Of a stretch of DNA of 6,074 bases, positions 1 to 6,074 are shown piece after piece (positions within the stretch are counted from its first letter, which is position 1; each line of letters begins with the position of its first letter). Both the position numbers and the translations under genes were made by a program. The stretch comes from a virus. The notes under the pieces are model-generated. The model searched no databases. It worked only from the letters and a program-made list of their open reading frames with translations, and was not told the DNA's origin. The stretch spans positions 1 through 6,074 of the IMG/VR virus record IMGVR_UViG_3300020019_000003, one strand, 5' to 3'.

Positions 1-108
1 CGTGAATATCGATATTATTGCTGTAAGCAAAACAATTATCGAGATCATCACTTTCGCCCATGTCGGTTTCCCCGCCGCCCATTCCTTGATATTTTTGATG
101 TACTCCAT
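1..108 (-). CDS. Redundant copy of the 5' part of the small membrane-protein ORF (equivalent to 5954-6061), truncated by the window edge
   Basis: Lies inside the terminal duplicate. The ATG at 106-108 (cat on the plus strand) corresponds to 6059-6061. This is not an independent gene. Confidence 0.5.
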   Translation of the reverse strand, partial: MEYIKNIKEWAAGKPTWAKVMISIIVLLTAIISIFT

Positions 109-121
109 AACGTAATAGTTC
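1..121. repeat. Terminal direct repeat, left copy; an exact duplicate of 5954-6074 (circular-contig overlap)
   Basis: Base-by-base comparison: 1-121 (cgtgaatatcgatattattg...cgtaatagttc) is identical to 5954-6074. The repeat boundary falls inside an ORF (the TM segment of the 67-aa protein), as expected for an arbitrary linearisation point of a circle and not for a biological LTR or att site. Confidence 0.97.
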
Positions 122-278
122 TTCTTTGATTTGATTTAGTTTGTACTCGATTGTCCAAATGTCTTTTAATAGAGATTCTTTTTTGAGGAGGAGCTCGCCC
201 CAGCTCTGGCGTAGATTTTTGATTTTCCATTCTTTGTTTGTCATAGTGGTGTTGTTTTTCTGCAAATGTATAAAACAT
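48..278 (-). CDS. Small, strongly basic hypothetical protein (76 aa from the ATG at 276-278; the ORF is open up to an ATG at 330-332, giving 94 aa). Candidate DNA-binding/packaging protein.
   Basis: The ATG at 276-278 lies 5 nt after the Rep stop (TAA, 284-286). My count over the 76 aa is 12 Arg, 8 Lys and only 5 Asp/Glu. The C-terminus reads RNGRRGNRHGRK. The stop TGA (48-50) overlaps an in-frame ATG (46-48) of the next ORF, forming TGATG. I recognise no homology, and an A-rich coding strand can produce Lys-rich ORFs by chance. Confidence 0.4.
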   Translation of the reverse strand: MFYTFAEKQHHYDKQRMENQKSTPELGRAPPQKRISIKRHLDNRVQTKSNQRRTITLWSTSKISRNGRRGNRHGRK

Positions 279-283
279 TTTCT

Positions 284-1222
284 TTATAATCCAAATTTTT
301 TGCGGCTTTTTTTGTATTTTTTCAAATTCCATGGTTCCGCAGGATAGCCGAGAGCTACGTTTTCGTCTTGTCTGTATTTTAGTGCTTGTTCATATTCTCG
401 TTCACCCTCCATTGTTGAAATGTCGATTTTTTCACCTCTGACGTATCGTGTTTGTTTGTTGAGTTTTTGTAGCCATAGTTGTTCGCGTTCTTCGTCTGTC
501 CATAGTTTGTTTCGAAAGTATGTTGGCATGGCCAGCTTTTGCCCCGATGGCGCTTTGTAATATTCCCTTGTGTTCTCTCCTTGAAATTTGTTAAGTCTTG
601 CGTCGTATCTGTTTAGCCAGCCTTTGCCCAACCCTTTTGACGCGAAGACTTTACTTGTGAATCCTGGATGCGCCGCGTCTACTTTGCTTACGTATTTCAC
701 GCAATAACCTACTGACTTGTCGTTCACGTATTCACCGGTATCCACCCACCCGTATCCCCATGTTTCCTCGATTTCTGAGGCACTCTTTGTCGTCCATAGG
801 AAACCATGTAAATGTAGCCTTTCTGTGCTTTTGTGAAACTCTGCTCTTTTCCCGTGGCCTAATTCCGTAACGAGCCAGTGTTTGATTGATTCGTTGTATT
901 TCTTTATCCATCGCTTCCCAAATAACTTGATAGCTCGGGCCGCTATTTCGTTCGGGTCTTCGTTTTTGCATTCTTTTTCTAATTTGTCGAGTGCTTCGTC
1001 GCTAAAGGTCATTGTCATGAAGAGTGCACGCGCGTCGTCTTTCAGCTCCTCGTGTAGTCTTACTTGCCACTCGCGCGCCTTTTTTTGGCGACATTCTATG
1101 CATTTTCCGCATCCGAACGGTACCGCTTTTACGCGTGCGTCTGGCGCCTCCGGCACAAAGCCGCCGTTTTTTTTGTTCGGCAAATATTTTGGATTTGCCC
1201 CTATTCTGCTATACAGACACAT
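284..1222 (-). CDS. VP4: Rolling-circle replication initiation protein (Microviridae VP4 / phiX174 gene A-like HUH endonuclease), 312 aa
   Basis: All three HUH superfamily motifs are readable. Motif 1 is FMTMTF (1004-1021). Motif 2 is the HUH sequence LHLHGFLW (His codons at 812-814 and 806-808). Motif 3 has paired catalytic tyrosines, GYCVKYVSK (Tyr codons at 704-706 and 692-694), which matches the YxxKY spacing of phiX174 protein A. The N-terminus MCL...NP plus the Cys cluster CGKCIEC is typical of microvirus VP4. Confidence 0.93.
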   Translation of the reverse strand: MCLYSRIGANPKYLPNKKNGGFVPEAPDARVKAVPFGCGKCIECRQKKAREWQVRLHEELKDDARALFMTMTFSDEALDKLEKECKNEDPNEIAARAIKLFGKRWIKKYNESIKHWLVTELGHGKRAEFHKSTERLHLHGFLWTTKSASEIEETWGYGWVDTGEYVNDKSVGYCVKYVSKVDAAHPGFTSKVFASKGLGKGWLNRYDARLNKFQGENTREYYKAPSGQKLAMPTYFRNKLWTDEEREQLWLQKLNKQTRYVRGEKIDISTMEGEREYEQALKYRQDENVALGYPAEPWNLKKYKKSRKKFGL

Positions 1223-1301
1223 AATGATAAGGAAAACACCGTAGGTATATACTAATCGCGCTGCCGTTAAGAACGGCCGAGTGATGGTTTCCGGCGCCGA
1301 A

Positions 1302-1321
1302 GATATCGCGGACGCGAGATC
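1302..1321. repeat. Inverted repeat / hairpin GATaTCGCG-ga-CGCGAgATC
   Basis: Pairs 1302-1304 with 1319-1321 and 1306-1309 with 1314-1317. There is one mismatch (1305/1318). The apical nucleotides are GGAC. Confidence 0.6.
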
Positions 1322-1367
1322 GAGGCCCCGAAACCGCGCAGGCCGTTTAGGCGCGCAGTTCTCGCGC

Positions 1368-1387
1368 TCGAAAGTACCGTCTTTCGA
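1368..1387. repeat. Hairpin TCGAAAG-taccgt-CTTTCGA (7-bp perfect stem, 6-nt loop)
   Basis: 1368-1374 is the exact reverse complement of 1381-1387. The stem can extend by 3 bp (1365-1367 with 1389-1391) if A1388 bulges. It directly flanks the AT-rich core. Confidence 0.65.
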
Positions 1388-1407
1388 AGCGTATAGTAAT
1401 TGTTATG

Positions 1408-1435
1408 AAGGCAGAGCGGTTGTCCGCCCTGCCTT
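1408..1435 (-). repeat. Strong GC-rich hairpin; on the coding strand AAGGCAGGGCGG-acaa-CCGCTCTGCCTT
   Basis: 11 Watson-Crick pairs (1408-1414 with 1429-1435, and 1416-1419 with 1424-1427). The 1415/1428 position is an A/C mismatch on the plus strand but a T-G wobble on the minus strand. The stem is therefore continuous (12 bp) only on the coding/virion-sense strand. It directly flanks the AT-rich core on the other side. Confidence 0.7.
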
Positions 1436-1456
1436 GCTTGCGCGTTGTGACTTGTT

Positions 1457-1491
1457 GCGTGTGTGCGCGTGTCTGACACGTGCGCGCGCGC
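1457..1491 (+). repeat. 35-nt imperfect palindrome made of alternating purine-pyrimidine tracts, abutting the VP2 stop codon
   Basis: 1457-1472 (gcgtgtgtgcgcgtgt) and 1477-1491 (cacgtgcgcgcgcgc) are strictly alternating Pu/Py. Folding them gives 12 Watson-Crick pairs plus 4 G-T pairs on the plus strand, with a 3-nt loop at 1473-1475. Those four positions become A-C mismatches on the minus strand. Confidence 0.65.
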
Positions 1492-2646
1492 TTACCAGAT
1501 CATCCGTGCCACAGGTTTTCCATCGGCGCCGTATATTGTAGGCACATCTACTTTTGTCACAGCGTTTTGCGGGCCTCGTAGTGCTTTTGCGCCGGCTCTG
1601 AATCCGATGACCCGTCCGGCGATGTCCGTGAGCATTTGTGCTCCTTGCGCTGCGTAATCTGCCCATGTCCGCCAGGTTACGTAGTCGCCCGTTTCGAATA
1701 GTGTCGCCAGCTCTTTGGCTTTGGCTTCGAGCAAGTGTGCGTCCGCGTTTTTTGCCGCTGCCAGTGCTTCCATGTACACGTATTTCTTTTTCTCCGTGTT
1801 CAGTGCGGCGAGCGCTTTGGCTGCTTTTGCGTTCTGCTGTCGTTCGTAGATTTGTGCCTGCGTGTTTAGCACGTCTTGCGTTCCCTGTCGTGATTTCAAG
1901 CGCCGTCCGATGATCGAGTATTCTCCGAACATGTCGTCATTTACGTCGAGCCTGTCTTTTTCGTTCCCCTCGAAAGCGTCCTCGAAGTAGCTTTCCAGAT
2001 TTCGAATATACTCGCCTTTTCCTTTCTCGAAGAGCTCCCGATATCTGATCGGCCGCATTTGCATTTCTGTGATTTTTTGTTCGGCGATGTGCGCTGCTTC
2101 TGCTCGCTGTTTTGCCGCCGCTGCGTTGATTTCGTCAATCTGTGCATCTTTCATCGCGAGGTCTTTTTTCATCGACACGAGCCCGAGCCCCATCTGTGCT
2201 TGCTGTATCGCTGCTGCCTGTTGCGCCGCTGCGCCGTCAGCTCGCCCTGCTTCTGCTCCTCCTGTTTCGCCTTGAGGAGCTCCAGTAGTTGCTCCGCCAG
2301 CTCCGCCAGCTCCGCCACCGCCATACATAAGCCCGATCGATAATCCTGCGTCTTCCATTTGTTCCCGCATAGCACCGTAAGATTGATCTTGATAGGACCT
2401 TTCGTACATTTCCATTTGACGCTTGTACGCGTTCTCTGCGGCTTTTTCTCCGTATTCATAGTTGAGTTTTGCTGCTTGTTCGTTTAGTTCCTTTTGCGCC
2501 TCTACTTGGCGCTTCATGCGCTTTTTTGCGCCGATTCCGCCGAATAGGGCTCCGACTGCTCCTGATAAACCCGAAGCCAGTCCGCCTGTTAGTCCGTCTG
2601 CTGCTGCGTTTCCTGCGACATTGAGCGCGTTTCCAAACCATCCCAT
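1492..2646 (-). CDS. VP2: Minor capsid / DNA pilot protein (Microviridae VP2, functional analogue of phiX174 H), 384 aa
   Basis: Gly/Ala-rich N-terminus (GGLASGLSGAVGALFGGIG). A charged region rich in Gln, Glu and Lys follows and looks coiled-coil. The motif AGLSIGLMYGGGGAGGAGG resembles the conserved AGLNP.LMYGGG block of gokusho/alpavirus VP2. Ala/Gln-rich helical repeats come next. Its position between the scaffold-like gene and Rep is typical. The assignment rests on remembered family features, not on a search. Confidence 0.85.
   Translation of the reverse strand: MGWFGNALNVAGNAAADGLTGGLASGLSGAVGALFGGIGAKKRMKRQVEAQKELNEQAAKLNYEYGEKAAENAYKRQMEMYERSYQDQSYGAMREQMEDAGLSIGLMYGGGGAGGAGGATTGAPQGETGGAEAGRADGAAAQQAAAIQQAQMGLGLVSMKKDLAMKDAQIDEINAAAAKQRAEAAHIAEQKITEMQMRPIRYRELFEKGKGEYIRNLESYFEDAFEGNEKDRLDVNDDMFGEYSIIGRRLKSRQGTQDVLNTQAQIYERQQNAKAAKALAALNTEKKKYVYMEALAAAKNADAHLLEAKAKELATLFETGDYVTWRTWADYAAQGAQMLTDIAGRVIGFRAGAKALRGPQNAVTKVDVPTIYGADGKPVARMIW
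2291..2317 (-). repeat. Perfect 3 x 9-nt tandem repeat (gctccgcca on the plus strand) encoding the (GGA)n stretch of VP2
   Basis: 2291-2299, 2300-2308 and 2309-2317 are identical and are followed by a partial copy, ccgcc. On the minus strand the repeat translates to the GGAGGAGGA part of YGGGGAGGAGGATTG. Confidence 0.9.
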
Positions 2647-2745
2647 TGTTCAATTCGTTTTATTTTTTCGCGATTTTTTGTAAAAAAATCTAAAATATAC
2701 CTTCTTGTTATATAAGTATAATCGTTCACCAAAAACGATTTTGTT

Positions 2746-2771
2746 AAAAAGGTCGGATTTTAACCCGACCT
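2746..2771 (-). terminator. Candidate intrinsic terminator downstream of the VP3-like gene
   Basis: The minus strand reads AGGTCGG-gttaaaat-CCGACC-TTTTT-aacaa. That is a 6-bp GC-rich stem (2751-2756 with 2765-2770; an A2750-T2771 closing pair is possible but uses the first T of the run), an 8-nt loop, then a T5 run (2746-2750). It sits 41 nt after the stop at 2812-2814. The stem is short, so this is moderate confidence. Confidence 0.55.
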
Positions 2772-2811
2772 ATCAAAAGTTCGTCACGGGTGCGATTATA
2801 CGACTGCTCTG

Positions 2812-3150
2812 TCAAGAGGGGTCCCCACTGGGGGTTACTTCTCCGGCTTCTCGGCCGCTTTGTTTTTCGAGGTTTTGACCTCCCACAATTTCTTCCGTTT
2901 TTGCTGCCTCGGCGAATTTCACGCTGTTGAGCTTCTCCATGGCTGCCTGTGCGATTTCGAATCTGTCTGTACGGATGTCGTATTCAGGGATTACTCCTCT
3001 GCTTTTCTCCGTGTAAATCATCGGTGCAACCGCTTCGATTGGTTTTTTCTCTTCCGTTGCCTTCCGTAATTTTACTTCCAGCGGTTCTGCCTCGTAGCTG
3101 TCATTTTTGATAATGCCGTGTGTTTGACGGCTAATCCATTCTTTGTACAT
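2812..3150 (-). CDS. Putative internal scaffolding protein (VP3-like conserved microvirus protein), 112 aa
   Basis: Contains the block PMIYTEKSRGVIPEYDIRTDRFEIAQAAMEK. I recognise this as the conserved (I)YTER.dGV.PeYdIRTDRwe(i)A motif of a small protein found between VP1 and VP2 in Bacteroidota-associated microviruses. The leader is A-rich (caaaacacctaaaaATG). The scaffolding function is inferred from position and size, not demonstrated. Confidence 0.6.
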   Translation of the reverse strand: MYKEWISRQTHGIIKNDSYEAEPLEVKLRKATEEKKPIEAVAPMIYTEKSRGVIPEYDIRTDRFEIAQAAMEKLNSVKFAEAAKTEEIVGGQNLEKQSGREAGEVTPSGDPS

Positions 3151-3179
3151 TTTTAGGTGTTTTGAAGTGTTTTTGAATT

Positions 3180-3203
3180 AAGGTGAGGGTTTCCCCTCAC
3201 CTT
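3180..3203 (-). other. Very stable 10-bp hairpin capped by a GNRA (GAAA) tetraloop on the coding strand; function unknown
   Basis: The minus strand reads AAGGTGAGGG-GAAA-CCCTCACCTT. 3180-3189 is the perfect reverse complement of 3194-3203. It starts 2 nt after the stop of the 64-aa ORF and ends 29 nt before the VP3-like ATG. It is followed by AATTCAAAAAC, with no U-tract, so it is not a canonical intrinsic terminator. Confidence 0.6.
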
Positions 3204-3205
3204 GG

Positions 3206-3400
3206 TTATTTGAGTTGATTTGCGAGGATTTGAATGTGTTCCACGACCTTTCTACGAATTATTTCCTCGTCGATTGCCCTTTTTAGGTCGCGTAGTTCCT
3301 CGTTGGACATCTGTTTTGTCGTGTCTCGATTTTCTATCCTCTGCATTAGCTCTTTGAATTTTTCTGAGAAGGCTGGCCCTCCCGCTACTTCGTCTTTCAT
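3206..3400 (-). CDS. Hypothetical small charged protein, probably helical, 64 aa from the ATG at 3398-3400 (the ORF track extends it to 3499, inside VP1)
   Basis: The ATG at 3398-3400 lies 4 nt after the VP1 stop (TAA, 3405-3407). The upstream 33 codons would overlap VP1 and look non-protein-like (CRQKTSGYSAQ...). The sequence is MKDEVAGGPAFSEKFKELMQRIENRDTTKQMSNEELRDLKRAIDEEIIRRKVVEHIQILANQLK, which looks amphipathic and helical. I recognise no homology. Confidence 0.5.
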   Translation of the reverse strand: MKDEVAGGPAFSEKFKELMQRIENRDTTKQMSNEELRDLKRAIDEEIIRRKVVEHIQILANQLK

Positions 3401-3404
3401 AGTT

Positions 3405-5396
3405 TTACAGATTAGGGATTTGCTTTGCTGACATTTTCCGTCGTACGATACAATCGATTGCGCACTGTACCCAGATGTTTTTTGCCGACAGTTTTGCATC
3501 CGCGAATGCTACGTTGTACTTCGTCGGGTCAATGTATGTTGTTAAATCGCTGATTGCCCCTGTGCTGTCGTGTTCGTAACTTCGATTCATCGCCATGTGT
3601 GCCAGTTCCCTGTATGCCGAGAACGACCCGAACGACTGGTCTATATTCGTCATATACTCTTGCCATGCCACTTGTTTTCCGGCTGATTTCCATGCTATCG
3701 TTCCGTCGGCGTTCACCTCTGTGTCGAATGCAGCCATTTCGTCTGTGATTAGTTCTTGAAAGGCAATTCCGTCGAGGTTAGGCTTATGGAAGTCGTTCAT
3801 CGTCTGCAACCTTGTCCACCATTTGTTGCCCTGTGAATAGTCTACCCGAGGCGTAAAGCTGCCGATGATCATGATCATCGACGGTTCTCGAATTTTGATC
3901 TTGATGCTGTTGCCTCCTCTCGCTTTGCGTTCTGCTCCTCGGCCGGCCAGTGTTCCCAGCGGCTGATCTTCTGTTGCGCTGTTGCTTACTACTTCGTCGA
4001 ATACTACTTCTGATGACATTCCGCCGACATACATGGGCGATTCTGCGATTCGCAGCGCTTTCTCGTCGTACACTACTTCCTGCCATGACTGATAACTTCC
4101 ATCGCTTACGGCGATTCTGTTCATCATGTCGTAGATTTTTTTTGCGAGTATCAGTGCGTCCATCTTCAGCATGCCATCGCTGACATCTACGCTTGTGATA
4201 TCTGCGATTCCGCCCTCGCCGTCTATCCATTCAGTAGATAACCAGTTGTTGAATCGGTCGGAGAGATATGTTTTGATACCCAGTCCTGCCTGGTTGAACC
4301 ATGACGCGTTGCCGTTTCCGTTCGTTTCGTTTACTGTTGCGTTTGCAAGACTTGCCGTGTATGGCATGCTGTTGAGGCTTTCGATGTTGAACGGCGCTGT
4401 TTTCGGTGCGGCGAGAATTGCTTCTCGCATTTCGTCGATGTTTGACAACTCGAATTCCGACAAGCCGATAGTTTGGTTATCTACTTCGTACGCGCTATCT
4501 CCCGGTTGAAAGTCTGTTGGGTTTGAGCTCGATTTTGATGTAAATATCCAGCTGGTCGATTTTTTCCCTACCCAGCCTGTCGGTCGTGCATCCCACAGTG
4601 CTTTGTTTTCCAAGTCGAACGTTGTACCGCTTTCTGGCGTTATTTTTACGCTTCGCGCTGTGCTTTCGTTTACTTCGCCGTTGAATATCACGTTGATTCT
4701 CCATTCGCCAGTTAATGTCGTTGAACCTATCTCTTGCCACTTCTTTTCGCTGTTTGTTTGATACTCAGTCGCTCCGTTTGCATTATATACGGTTATTGTT
4801 TTGATTAATCCCTGTCCTTGGGTAATTACGTACCCTACTTCCTCCTGCTTGTTTGCGTAGTAGTTCTTGTACGTGTCCCAGTACATGAGTATGAACATTG
4901 CCGGAAACGTTCTTGTAAACGTCGTTTCCCCTGTTTTGCTTCGGCCAAGACCTCGAATTCCCGTGTATGCTATTAGGCTGTCTTGACTGATTTGCTGACT
5001 GTTTAGGTCGTCTTTCGTCATGTCCGGCTGATTTGCGCGTAGTTTCATTACCGGCAGTTTGACGTTCTGCATTTTCATACCGATTCCCAGTGCGTTGTTG
5101 TGCAACACCCTGATGTATAGCCGTATAGGCGCGTGGAAAACGTCGATTTGATGTTTCAGACGTCCGAATATTGGTCCGTTCGTCGGAAGCGTCCGAATTT
5201 TTGTTGTCAGGTCGATGTTATACGTCGTGCCGTTTAGTCCGATGTCGCAGAAGTACGGCACGAGAGTTCCTATTGCTTGGTCAGTTTTGAATAACTGTCC
5301 GATGTTGTGACTACTTCTGTTGAATCCGTGCAGAGTCACGTTCATTTTGTTGCCGGAGCCGAGTCTCTCGCCTCCGAGTGCTTTTGTGATTGCCAT
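3405..5396 (-). CDS. VP1: Major capsid protein (Microviridae VP1 / phiX174 F-like jelly-roll), 663 aa
   Basis: The N-terminus is typical of microvirus MCPs (HGFNRSSHNIGQLFKTDQAIGTLVPYFCDIGLNG). Other family-like blocks are FPAMFILMYWDTYKNYYAN, YLSDRFNNWL and LAGRG...REPSMIMIIGSFTPRVDY. It is the longest ORF and has an A-rich leader (aaaaaaaagtagaaaaacATG). The length above 600 aa is characteristic of Alpavirinae-type capsids. Confidence 0.95.
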   Translation of the reverse strand: MAITKALGGERLGSGNKMNVTLHGFNRSSHNIGQLFKTDQAIGTLVPYFCDIGLNGTTYNIDLTTKIRTLPTNGPIFGRLKHQIDVFHAPIRLYIRVLHNNALGIGMKMQNVKLPVMKLRANQPDMTKDDLNSQQISQDSLIAYTGIRGLGRSKTGETTFTRTFPAMFILMYWDTYKNYYANKQEEVGYVITQGQGLIKTITVYNANGATEYQTNSEKKWQEIGSTTLTGEWRINVIFNGEVNESTARSVKITPESGTTFDLENKALWDARPTGWVGKKSTSWIFTSKSSSNPTDFQPGDSAYEVDNQTIGLSEFELSNIDEMREAILAAPKTAPFNIESLNSMPYTASLANATVNETNGNGNASWFNQAGLGIKTYLSDRFNNWLSTEWIDGEGGIADITSVDVSDGMLKMDALILAKKIYDMMNRIAVSDGSYQSWQEVVYDEKALRIAESPMYVGGMSSEVVFDEVVSNSATEDQPLGTLAGRGAERKARGGNSIKIKIREPSMIMIIGSFTPRVDYSQGNKWWTRLQTMNDFHKPNLDGIAFQELITDEMAAFDTEVNADGTIAWKSAGKQVAWQEYMTNIDQSFGSFSAYRELAHMAMNRSYEHDSTGAISDLTTYIDPTKYNVAFADAKLSAKNIWVQCAIDCIVRRKMSAKQIPNL

Positions 5397-5402
5397 GTTT
5401 TT

Positions 5403-5762
5403 CTACTTTTTTTTCGTTCGATTTTGTGCCTCCCATGCGTCGCGATACACTGCCGTGGCGATGAAAATCAAGTCCCACCCTTTTTCATCCACTGCTTTCT
5501 GTGCCGCTTCGATGGTTTTGTATTTTTCCGGGCTTACTGCTTGTCCGGCCAGTACCAGCGTGTACCCTCCTTTTCGTTTTCCAACGGCGTAGAACGGTCC
5601 GCGTTTGAGCGGCACCCAATCGAAATTCTCGACTTTTTCCGTTGTTTCTTTCACTTCAGAAGAGGTTGAGCTGTTGAGGAGTTTCCTGTATTTTCCCGAT
5701 TCTTCTGATTGTGTGCACGTAGGTGCCGTAGGGTTCTTTTTGCTCGATGATTTCTGTGCCAT
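5403..5762 (-). CDS. Hypothetical protein, 119 aa from the ATG at 5760-5762; an alternative 83-aa product could start at the GTG at 5652-5654
   Basis: Ends 6 nt upstream of the VP1 ATG. The N-terminal 36 aa are low-complexity Ser/Thr/Lys and overlap the preceding ORF. The C-terminal part (FDWVPLKRGPFYAVGKRKGGYTLVLAGQAVSPEKYKTIEAAQKAVDEKGWDLIFIATAVY) looks like a folded domain. A GTG lies 1 nt after the upstream ORF's TGA (TGAaGTG). Confidence 0.55.
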   Translation of the reverse strand: MAQKSSSKKNPTAPTCTQSEESGKYRKLLNSSTSSEVKETTEKVENFDWVPLKRGPFYAVGKRKGGYTLVLAGQAVSPEKYKTIEAAQKAVDEKGWDLIFIATAVYRDAWEAQNRTKKK

Positions 5763-5856
5763 AGCTTTTGTAAATTTTGTTAGTTAGTTGTTGTTTTGTC
5801 CATATCACCCCGTCTTCGTCTACGTAAGTAACCGGGAGATATTTTTTTGTTTTCAC
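5656..5856 (-). CDS. Hypothetical protein, 66 aa, GTG start
   Basis: The GTG at 5854-5856 lies 1 nt after the TAA (5858-5860) of the upstream ORF (TAAcGTG). There is no internal Met. The 3' 107 nt overlap the 119-aa ORF in another frame. The sequence (YLPVTYVDEDGVIWTKQQL...YGTYVHTIRRIG) is protein-like, but I do not recognise it. Confidence 0.45.
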   Translation of the reverse strand: MKTKKYLPVTYVDEDGVIWTKQQLTNKIYKSYGTEIIEQKEPYGTYVHTIRRIGKIQETPQQLNLF

Positions 5857-5857
5857 G

Positions 5858-6061
5858 TTAATACACTGCGTTGTTTGTTTTTGTTTTTATCCACACTTCT
5901 ACTGAATCTGTGTGTACGCCTTTTTTGTGCAACATGTAACTTGCACTACAGCTCGTGAATATCGATATTATTGCTGTAAGCAAAACAATTATCGAGATCA
6001 TCACTTTCGCCCATGTCGGTTTCCCCGCCGCCCATTCCTTGATATTTTTGATGTACTCCAT
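5858..6061 (-). CDS. Small membrane protein with one TM helix / lipobox-like signal, 67 aa (alternative 47-aa form from the ATG at 5999-6001). Candidate lysis or superinfection-exclusion factor.
   Basis: Residues 20-37 (VMISIIVLLTAIISIFTS) form a hydrophobic helix. They are followed by Cys38 (5948-5950) in an IFTS-C context that fits a relaxed lipobox. The tail is basic (HKKGVHTDSVEVWIKTKTNN). The ORF spans the circular junction. Its internal ATG overlaps the stop of the basic ORF (TGATG). Confidence 0.6.
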   Translation of the reverse strand: MEYIKNIKEWAAGKPTWAKVMISIIVLLTAIISIFTSCSASYMLHKKGVHTDSVEVWIKTKTNNAVY

Positions 6062-6074
6062 AACGTAATAGTTC
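5954..6074. repeat. Terminal direct repeat, right copy; an exact duplicate of 1-121
   Basis: Same comparison as the left copy. The offset is 5953 nt, so the genome unit length is 5,953 nt. Confidence 0.97.

Follow-up and report, generated by a model that had tools for sequence, protein, structure and literature searches.

The single-strand origins (sso) of rolling-circle plasmids are folded regions of 100-300 nucleotides (nt) that work in one orientation only, depend on host enzymes, are dispensable and can pass between replicons whose Rep proteins are unrelated. In the ssoA type, which is marked by the CS-6 loop motif TAGCG(T/A) and an RSB site, host RNA polymerase lays a short primer RNA on the sso. 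The primosome site of phiX174 and the complementary-strand origins of G4 and M13/f1 are intergenic hairpins with conserved structure and compensatory changes that recruit PriA, primase or RNA polymerase. Here, we analyze a non-coding island directly upstream of the replication gene Rep in a 6,074-nt stretch of viral DNA (IMG/VR record IMGVR_UViG_3300020019_000003, positions 1 to 6,074; hereafter the window). This stretch represents a complete microvirus genome, and the island is a mosaic of modules, among them a cassette of about 150 nt, that may act as strand-specific folded single-stranded DNA (ssDNA).

Among microviruses, conserved covarying hairpins located by Rep have been described for reekeekee- and roodoodoo-microviruses and tentatively assigned as initiation sites of second (negative)-strand synthesis (PMC9865509). 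The window cassette shares with them the intergenic location upstream of Rep, compensatory substitutions and a conserved loop (PMC9865509). The described hairpins are single, 13-64 nt long, on the coding strand and confined to one clade (PMC9865509), whereas the window cassette is a 150-nt multi-helix element with alternative alleles and transfer across lineages, and is inverted.

A GC-rich and strongly folded island upstream of Rep

The island occupies positions 1223-1491, between the stop codon of VP2 (1492-1494, minus strand) and the start codon of Rep, also called VP4 (1222-1220, minus strand). At 269 nt, it is the largest gap free of open reading frames (ORFs), the runner-up being 165 nt long. 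Its G+C content is 57.2% overall and 60.4% over positions 1261-1490, compared with 46.8% for the remaining genome; 4.4% of all 269-nt segments of the genome are equally GC-rich, and the maximum begins at 1263. The observed/expected CpG ratio is 1.74 in the island and 1.35 elsewhere, the density of GCGC/CGCG is about ten times that of the remainder of the genome, and ten pairs of inverted repeats are found within 1180-1530. An earlier note, made from the sequence alone, had described the island as the largest gap, rich in GC and CpG and with at least six inverted repeats, and these descriptions agree with the counts obtained here. Compared with 200 dinucleotide shuffles, folding as DNA gave z-scores of -4.0 for the minus and -4.2 for the plus strand, and folding as RNA gave -5.1 and -5.9, respectively, with no shuffle as good in any of the four comparisons. 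Identity to the nearest public genome, MG945515 from dog faeces (93% identity across 94% of the length), is 96.6% within the island, above the genome average.

Read on the plus strand, which is the non-coding strand, the cassette spans positions 1245-1392 and consists of the palindrome GTATATAC, a covarying rod of about 100 nt and a hairpin with the loop TACCGT. The palindrome occurs once in the window genome and overlaps, at 1245-1252, a short hairpin (ACC-gta-GGT, 1238-1252, plus strand) that forms the 5' border of the cassette in cassette orientation. Every cassette of the other lineages is preceded by a small covarying hairpin of this kind, followed directly by TAT(A/G)NA(C/G), and pair 16-23 of the border hairpin is A-U in 36 sequences and G-C in 36. 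Motifs resembling GTAT(A/T)TA are also located upstream of Rep in members of the window clade that lack this cassette. The core of the window cassette, referred to as type B, is an imperfect rod-like hairpin of about 100 nt at 1258-1356 on the plus strand, based on RNAalifold analysis of 9 copies from three lineages. It is followed by the 3' hairpin (GCGC-TCGAAAG-TACCGT-CTTTCGA-AGCGT, 1364-1392, plus strand) with its loop at 1375-1380. Two further hairpins complete the island: a 12-bp hairpin at 1408-1435 that is perfect on the coding (mRNA-sense) minus strand only and an alternating GC/GT hairpin at 1457-1491 on the plus strand that abuts the VP2 stop codon.

The type B consensus contains 47 pairs, 36 of which are located in the rod (helices 1-3), with compensatory double changes in 10 of the 47 and 98.8% of cells paired. 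For an alternative core forming a three-way junction, referred to as type A, 72 distinct copies show compensatory double changes in 9 of 36 pairs and 99.5% of cells paired. None of 500 shuffles was as good for either type, and controls with slid partners gave 0-3 (0-1 for type B). The loop of the 3' hairpin reads TACCGT in 76 cases, TACCGC in 16 and TGCCGT in one, and in two genomes (L316 and L071) the stem covaries while the loop is unchanged. In the latter, a 10-kb contig, the TACCGT hairpin has a different extended stem (CCGGCC/GGCCGG). The compensatory changes, the 98.8-99.5% of paired cells and the failure of any shuffle to equal them establish that the structure of the cassette is under selection. 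Two of the checks proposed in the earlier note, folding against dinucleotide shuffles and a search for conservation and covariation among relatives, came out positive, the former for both strands and for DNA as well as RNA.

Substitutions in the island pair across helices and lack codon spacing. The two arginine-rich ORFs of this region (1267-1479, minus strand; 1281-1541, plus strand), for which the earlier note had named a coding signal as contrary evidence, were rejected as genes: four 1-nt indels separate the B-type copies, shifting the frame, and no Pfam family matches. A 23-codon ORF starting at 1405 on the plus strand was likewise discarded, as it is frameshifted in L050.

The cassette is shared by divergent microvirus lineages

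An exact 20-mer of the 1364-1392 hairpin is present in 71 IMG/VR contigs, and a 24-nt hairpin pattern in 43 metagenome contigs, mostly from the human gut. Nearly all contigs with the cassette hairpin are microvirus genomes of about 6 kb, and the cassette comes from the faeces of dogs and pigs, from human gut metagenomes and from other viromes. Three genomic backbones carry the cassette: the window clade, a large lineage from here on called the carrier lineage, and a temperate lineage of the L014 type. Rep identity to the window is about 30% in the carrier lineage and 23-24% in the L014-type lineage (range 23-32%), and tblastn does not detect the VP1 of the carrier lineage or of L056 and L014. 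Positions 1245-1397 of the window are 95.5% identical to the copies in L056 and L014. Such identity across lineages with divergent Rep proteins, combined with absence from some relatives, marks the cassette as a horizontally moving accessory module.

Cores of type A and type B alternate between conserved ends. L033 combines the window backbone with a type A core, the exchange being exact between GTATATAC and the 3' hairpin. A covariance model of type A, for which 98 sources were searched, recovered type B end to end; it found no match in about 90 other microvirus genomes, and the cassette is therefore not universal. Where present, it is found as one copy per genome and always at the Rep-proximal locus.

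The locus was surveyed in 69 carrier-lineage genomes that had been picked via their Rep protein and not via the cassette. A cassette of type A or B with its hairpin is present in 42 of them, another 3 have variant hairpins and 7 retain the B rod but lack the hairpin. In 5 genomes the locus holds another structured cassette, with GTATATAC after it, and 12 (about 1 in 6) have no cassette, which makes the element dispensable. Empty sites keep the 3' flank AAGCGTAGA, and one also keeps CACCGGTATAT. A third structured cassette (…CCCCAGGGGACAACCGAAGGTTGTGGCCACCGCGAAGCGGTAAGGTAC…) is seen at the same locus in L247, L266, L303, L312 and L315, where it is followed by GTATATAC and then ATG. Replacement also occurs within the window clade, with an unrelated cassette in L082 (Rep 96% identical) and yet other cassettes in L084-L086; that of L084 had no BLAST match in the phage collection. 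In Dulem virus 222, just 35 nt are found at the island position.

The surroundings of the cassette differ between backbones. Carrier genomes encode a conserved ORF of about 70 codons (MDYFDFRPRFSP…) between cassette and Rep (e.g. L076 2526-2744, in a rotated genome), which has no counterpart in the window. A conserved non-coding block (…ATATGCCAGATGTGGAAACG…) is located 3' of the cassette in L014 (approximately 2990-3040), L062, L071 and L046. L062, a 10-kb contig, is the provirus form of an L014-type microvirus, flanked by direct repeats with the 15-nt core AATTTAACATAATGA (attachment repeats at 2526-2545 in L014 and at 1985-2008 and 7799-7822 in L062). This core represents a dif-like attP core resembling a XerD arm and lies about 500 nt from the cassette, outside it. 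The L014-type lineage was also found within metagenome contigs of 49-111 kb (L225, L229); this and the integration in L062 show that the lineage is temperate.

Orientation follows base skew and not gene direction

Carrier and L014-type genomes have the cassette on the coding strand, with a classic terminator just before it and the first ORF of the Rep operon starting about 25 nt downstream. All window-clade copies run against the genes but still adjoin Rep. Across 113 contigs, orientation follows base composition: in 99, the cassette is co-oriented with the genes and the coding strand is T-rich, while in the other 14 it is inverted and the coding strand is A-rich, with no genuine exception. 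One apparent exception, L214, was rejected because the sequence in question is the host flank of a provirus.

The structures themselves discriminate between the strands. Four internal G-U pairs of the rod are present in cassette orientation only, and the type B consensus energy is -63.9 kcal/mol in that orientation and -54.7 kcal/mol in the opposite one. In the inverted copies of the window and L083, the 3' hairpin is closed by a plus-strand G-T pair that is A/C on the coding strand. Rod, 1457-1491 hairpin and the closing pair of the 1364-1392 hairpin are all continuous on the plus strand only. Specifically, the GC/GT hairpin forms an uninterrupted 16-bp stem on the plus strand (-14.1 kcal/mol) that is broken on the minus strand (-7.5 kcal/mol), and its BLAST matches in pig microviruses are inverted relative to genes. 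In six lineages, this hairpin has an unbroken 13-17-bp stem on the T-rich strand only, whichever strand bears the genes, the intact strand being non-coding in the window clade and coding elsewhere.

The earlier note had taken the coding strand to be the virion strand. For hairpin 1408-1435, the claimed restriction of the continuous 12-bp stem to the coding strand is correct, an A/C mismatch on the plus strand corresponding to a G-U (G-T) pair on the minus strand. This pair is kept in L001, L033, L050 and L083; the hairpin is confined to the window lineage, is not followed by a U run on the coding strand and is probably the 3'-end hairpin of the VP2 transcript. Most helices, however, fold best on the antisense strand, and the equation of coding and virion strand had been assumed without evidence.

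Four-fold sites on the coding strand of the window clade have the composition A45 C18 G27 T9, which is the rank-order complement of both phiX174 (A7 C21 G11 T61) and the carrier, L014-type and pig lineages (approximately A10 C27 G14 T47). SpV4 and Chp2 have T-rich four-fold sites like phiX174, and in three relatives, L088, L169 and L170, A and T are about equal and C is extremely depleted. When ssDNA phages prefer codons ending in T, this is accepted as a mark of C-to-T pressure acting on their packaged strand (PMC3278643). Polarised singleton substitutions are mirrored as well, with G-to-A exceeding C-to-T in the window clade and the reverse in the carrier lineage, although counts are small and sites partly saturated.

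The orientation rule extends to unrelated elements. When 90 A-rich genomes were compared all-versus-all with 88 T-rich genomes, each set genes-forward, non-coding matches between the two groups were inverted without exception. They belong to at least three element families: the cassette, the GC/GT hairpin and an unrelated cassette of L110 and L192/L193, found in the A-rich bajarodmic virus 1124 and in the T-rich Dipodfec virus 720 and bajarodmic virus 163 (AT4 -0.75 and -0.80). Unlike these non-coding elements, the only clearly shared protein-coding gene is co-oriented with the genes. A shared 76-codon gene (MKWLDEHPEVWAKL...) was seen at L112 777-1014, in A-rich coding context, and at L004 2882-3119, in T-rich coding context, with 79% nucleotide identity and in gene orientation.

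Possible function as strand-specific ssDNA modules

Among the explanations considered, the one best supported is that the modules of the island function as ssDNA folded on one particular strand, much as the single-strand origins of rolling-circle plasmids do. We propose this tentatively, its probability being in our judgement a little short of even. An origin-like role for folded ssDNA had been suggested in the earlier note and stands as a class of explanation; not supported are an essential origin, given that 12 of 69 carrier genomes are empty, and the assignment to the coding strand. On this view, the island would serve as a variable control region, pieced together from exchangeable non-coding modules which work in folded single-stranded form on the T-rich plus strand, antisense to all genes. 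Modules that are indifferent to gene direction and faithful to the skewed strand would most simply act as ssDNA on the displaced or packaged strand. Cassette and GC/GT hairpin may work like sso or like the complementary-strand origins of phiX174, G4 and M13, with host primase, RNA polymerase or PriA recognizing the structure on the entering single strand and thereby initiating second-strand synthesis. Recognition by a host enzyme would explain why the sequence appears host-dependent rather than Rep-dependent, mobile, and helpful yet dispensable. The border hairpin with GTATATAC, adjoining Rep, is a candidate recognition or nick site for Rep.

The likeness to ssoA, ssoU, ssoT and ssoW lies in a long, imperfectly folded non-coding region, and the rod at 1258-1356 together with the hairpin at 1364-1392 fits such extensive pairing. 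Independence of Rep, dispensability, exchange of cassettes and a short conserved loop motif are further shared traits, the strand-specific helices and an orientation fixed relative to base skew may correspond to the one working orientation of sso, and presence or absence and modularity at a single locus resemble sso cassettes by analogy. Differences are the lack of sequence similarity (the window loop is TACCGT, the ssoA loop TAGCGT), the setting in a phage of gut bacteria instead of a Gram-positive plasmid and, if GTATATAC were the nick site, the displacement of the cassette first and not last. The coliphage origins likewise show no sequence homology, and in contrast to them the window module is optional, swappable, common to several lineages and, in the window clade, antisense to the genes. 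Two aspects were unexpected: the exchange of a cassette among unrelated gut microviruses and an orientation tied to base skew instead of genes.

To our knowledge, every microvirus is assumed to package its coding strand. If the modules act on the packaged strand, their antisense position relative to the genes implies a packaged strand complementary to the mRNAs in the window clade. We offer such a negative-sense lineage as a proposal that is nearly, but not quite, as probable as its converse. The lineage would comprise the window, MG945515 and relatives including L084-L086 and probably L106-L111. The orientation of the cassette and the adjoining putative Rep site would set the displaced and packaged strand, and flipping of the genes relative to this module would have yielded the mirror-image codon composition. 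The T-rich strand would then be the packaged strand in both groups. Genes read from the complement of the packaged strand and a mirrored composition would be a likeness to Anelloviridae, Circoviridae and Geminiviridae, which differ in being viruses of eukaryotes. We know of no microvirus described as antisense or ambisense, and a non-exhaustive literature search found no relevant reports of negative-sense or strand-polarity in Microviridae.

Several observations weigh against these proposals. The 12 empty carrier genomes and the 7 that have the B rod without the 3' hairpin mean that the cassette is not an essential origin. The phiX174-type viral-strand origin is a conserved 30-nt sequence, CAACTTGATATTAATAACACTATAGACCAC, nicked after CTTG; it has no counterpart in the window, the best match having 10 mismatches and lying within VP1. 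Of the two forms of the ssoA loop motif, TAGCGT does not occur in the window genome and TAGCGA occurs only within Rep, at 999. An A-rich coding strand is present in 76 of 80 Rep relatives from many environments (survey loci L106-L187 and L191) and is widespread in gokushovirus-like phages. The cultured phage phiMH2K is A-rich too (A47 T23 C23 G7), with a C>G pattern that is not the mirror of phiX174. A-rich coding strands being this common, skew alone is no proof of the packaged strand. When the largest non-coding gaps of 38 A-rich and 18 T-rich genomes were folded on either strand and compared with shuffles, no general strand preference emerged. The orientation rule rests on about 3-4 independent transfers, with a chance probability of roughly 6-12%, and C-to-T mutation pressure accounts in part for G-T wobbles on a T-rich strand. 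Within the same island, hairpin 1408-1435 prefers the coding strand. Finally, action as DNA and action as RNA are inseparable by sequence.

Alternative explanations

This last point leads to the alternative that survives best, though we consider it unlikely: the cassette may be an independent small non-coding RNA gene of about 140 nt on the plus strand, running from just past a TATATAC box to the 1364-1392 hairpin. Such a gene, which might produce a counter-defence decoy or a regulator, would be accessory and exchanged, and its direction with respect to other genes would be irrelevant. The strongest folding z-score is indeed that of plus-strand RNA (-5.9), and covariation and G-U pairs suit RNA as well as DNA. 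Accessory genes typically vary in presence and have alternative alleles, like A, B and C at this locus, the 3' hairpin with its moderately U-rich tail resembles a terminator, and the carrier cassette lies between a classic terminator and the Rep operon. However, Rfam 15 gave chance-level matches only (E about 1) for window positions 1100-1600 and five related genomes, and ARAGORN found no tRNA or tmRNA, so that the structured RNA considered in the earlier note has no counterpart here among described families. A sigma-70 -10 element has an invariant final T, and promoters of Bacteroidetes have the motif TAnnTTTG; the upstream box varies (TATATA, TATGAA, TATGCA, TATATC), lacks this T and does not fit the motif. 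Nor would an RNA gene explain why orientation goes with base skew in 113 of 113 contigs and also in unrelated elements, and the GC/GT hairpin follows the same rule outside the putative transcript.

The cassette could also be a selfish, non-autonomous ssDNA element similar to PATE/REP elements, moved by an HUH transposase of the IS200/IS605 type or by a phage Rep and inserting beside a TATA(C) target on exposed single strand, a possibility we rate somewhat lower still. Precise presence or absence at one locus, empty sites with a retained 3' flank, hairpins at both ends with the palindromic GTATATAC as 5' border, and near-identical copies on three unrelated backbones all recall such elements, and strand-specific insertion would produce the orientation rule as well. 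The same packaged strand would be implied. Against this stand the single, always Rep-proximal copy per genome, the lack of an associated transposase and of an established target-site signature, and covariation along the entire 100-nt rod, which suggests more than recognition of ends. No copies were found in host genomes either: the 20-mer matches 4 of 185,579 species genomes, all within host genes and at chance level, 3 of them adjoining tsf (a coding coincidence of the SKDGTFD type). The idea of captured host DNA, raised in the earlier note, fails on the same result.

Ordinary regulation at the level of double-stranded DNA or mRNA, with the island serving as Rep promoter/operator, 5' leader and terminators of the VP2 operon, is improbable. 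The location directly upstream of Rep, the placement of the carrier cassette after a terminator and ahead of the Rep operon's first ORF, the preference of hairpin 1408-1435 for the mRNA-sense strand and a weak sigma-70-like match at 1224-1253 on the plus strand are in its favor. A leader acting in cis has to share the direction of its gene, which the cassette of the window clade, inverted relative to Rep, does not do, and most helices are weaker on the mRNA-sense strand. Scans for sigma-70 promoters and terminators did not exceed shuffled sequence in their counts and gave no convincing site in the island, with no terminator-like site on either strand of 1223-1491; moreover, Rep is expressed in relatives without a cassette.

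Use of the folded island as an Xer substrate for integration, an attP/dif mimic as in CTXphi that the earlier note had put forward, has a negligible chance of being correct: integration at a dif-like core does occur in a related temperate lineage that carries the cassette, but the attP there lies about 500 nt from the cassette, no dif-like sequence (two 11-nt arms around a 6-nt spacer resembling host dif) is found in the window, where the best matches have 11-13 mismatches, and none of the 14 window-clade contigs is integrated, all being fragments or free genomes of about 6 kb.

Genome context

The window represents a complete circular microvirus genome of 5,952 nt, positions 1-122 being repeated at 5953-6074 as a 122-nt assembly overlap. 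All credible genes are located on the minus strand, including Rep/VP4 (1222-284; Pfam REP_ORF2-G2P, E 2.6e-10), VP2 (2646-1492) and VP1 (5396-3405; Pfam Phage_F, E 2e-10). A second, AT-rich non-coding gap of 165 nt at 2647-2811 probably holds a terminator and the VP2 promoter. On its coding strand, a hairpin (2775-2756) is followed by TTTTT, and the sole other GGTATAT of the genome is found inside this gap at 2695 on the minus strand. A perfect 14-bp hairpin (AAGGTGAGGG-TTTC-CCCTCACCTT) at 3176-3207 lies in a 55-nt gap separating two small ORFs and is the top terminator-like match of the scan, scored on the plus strand. Two candidate origin sites elsewhere were rejected: CTTGATAT at 85-92 on the plus strand is not conserved in relatives, and the pC194-type motif CTTGATA is absent or not conserved, its excess on the non-coding strand being a composition effect.

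Implications

We know of no account of how second-strand synthesis starts in the abundant gut microviruses, and the 150-nt TACCGT-loop cassette represents a concrete, widely shared candidate signal for this step. The rule that structured non-coding modules track base skew and not gene direction makes the polarity of the packaged strand predictable from sequence and testable with strand-preserving virome libraries that already exist. If the proposed reading is true, gene orientation and genome polarity would be separable in rolling-circle phages, and unrelated phages would trade replication modules as plasmids trade sso cassettes. Host prediction from codon usage would then have to consider polarity for these phages.

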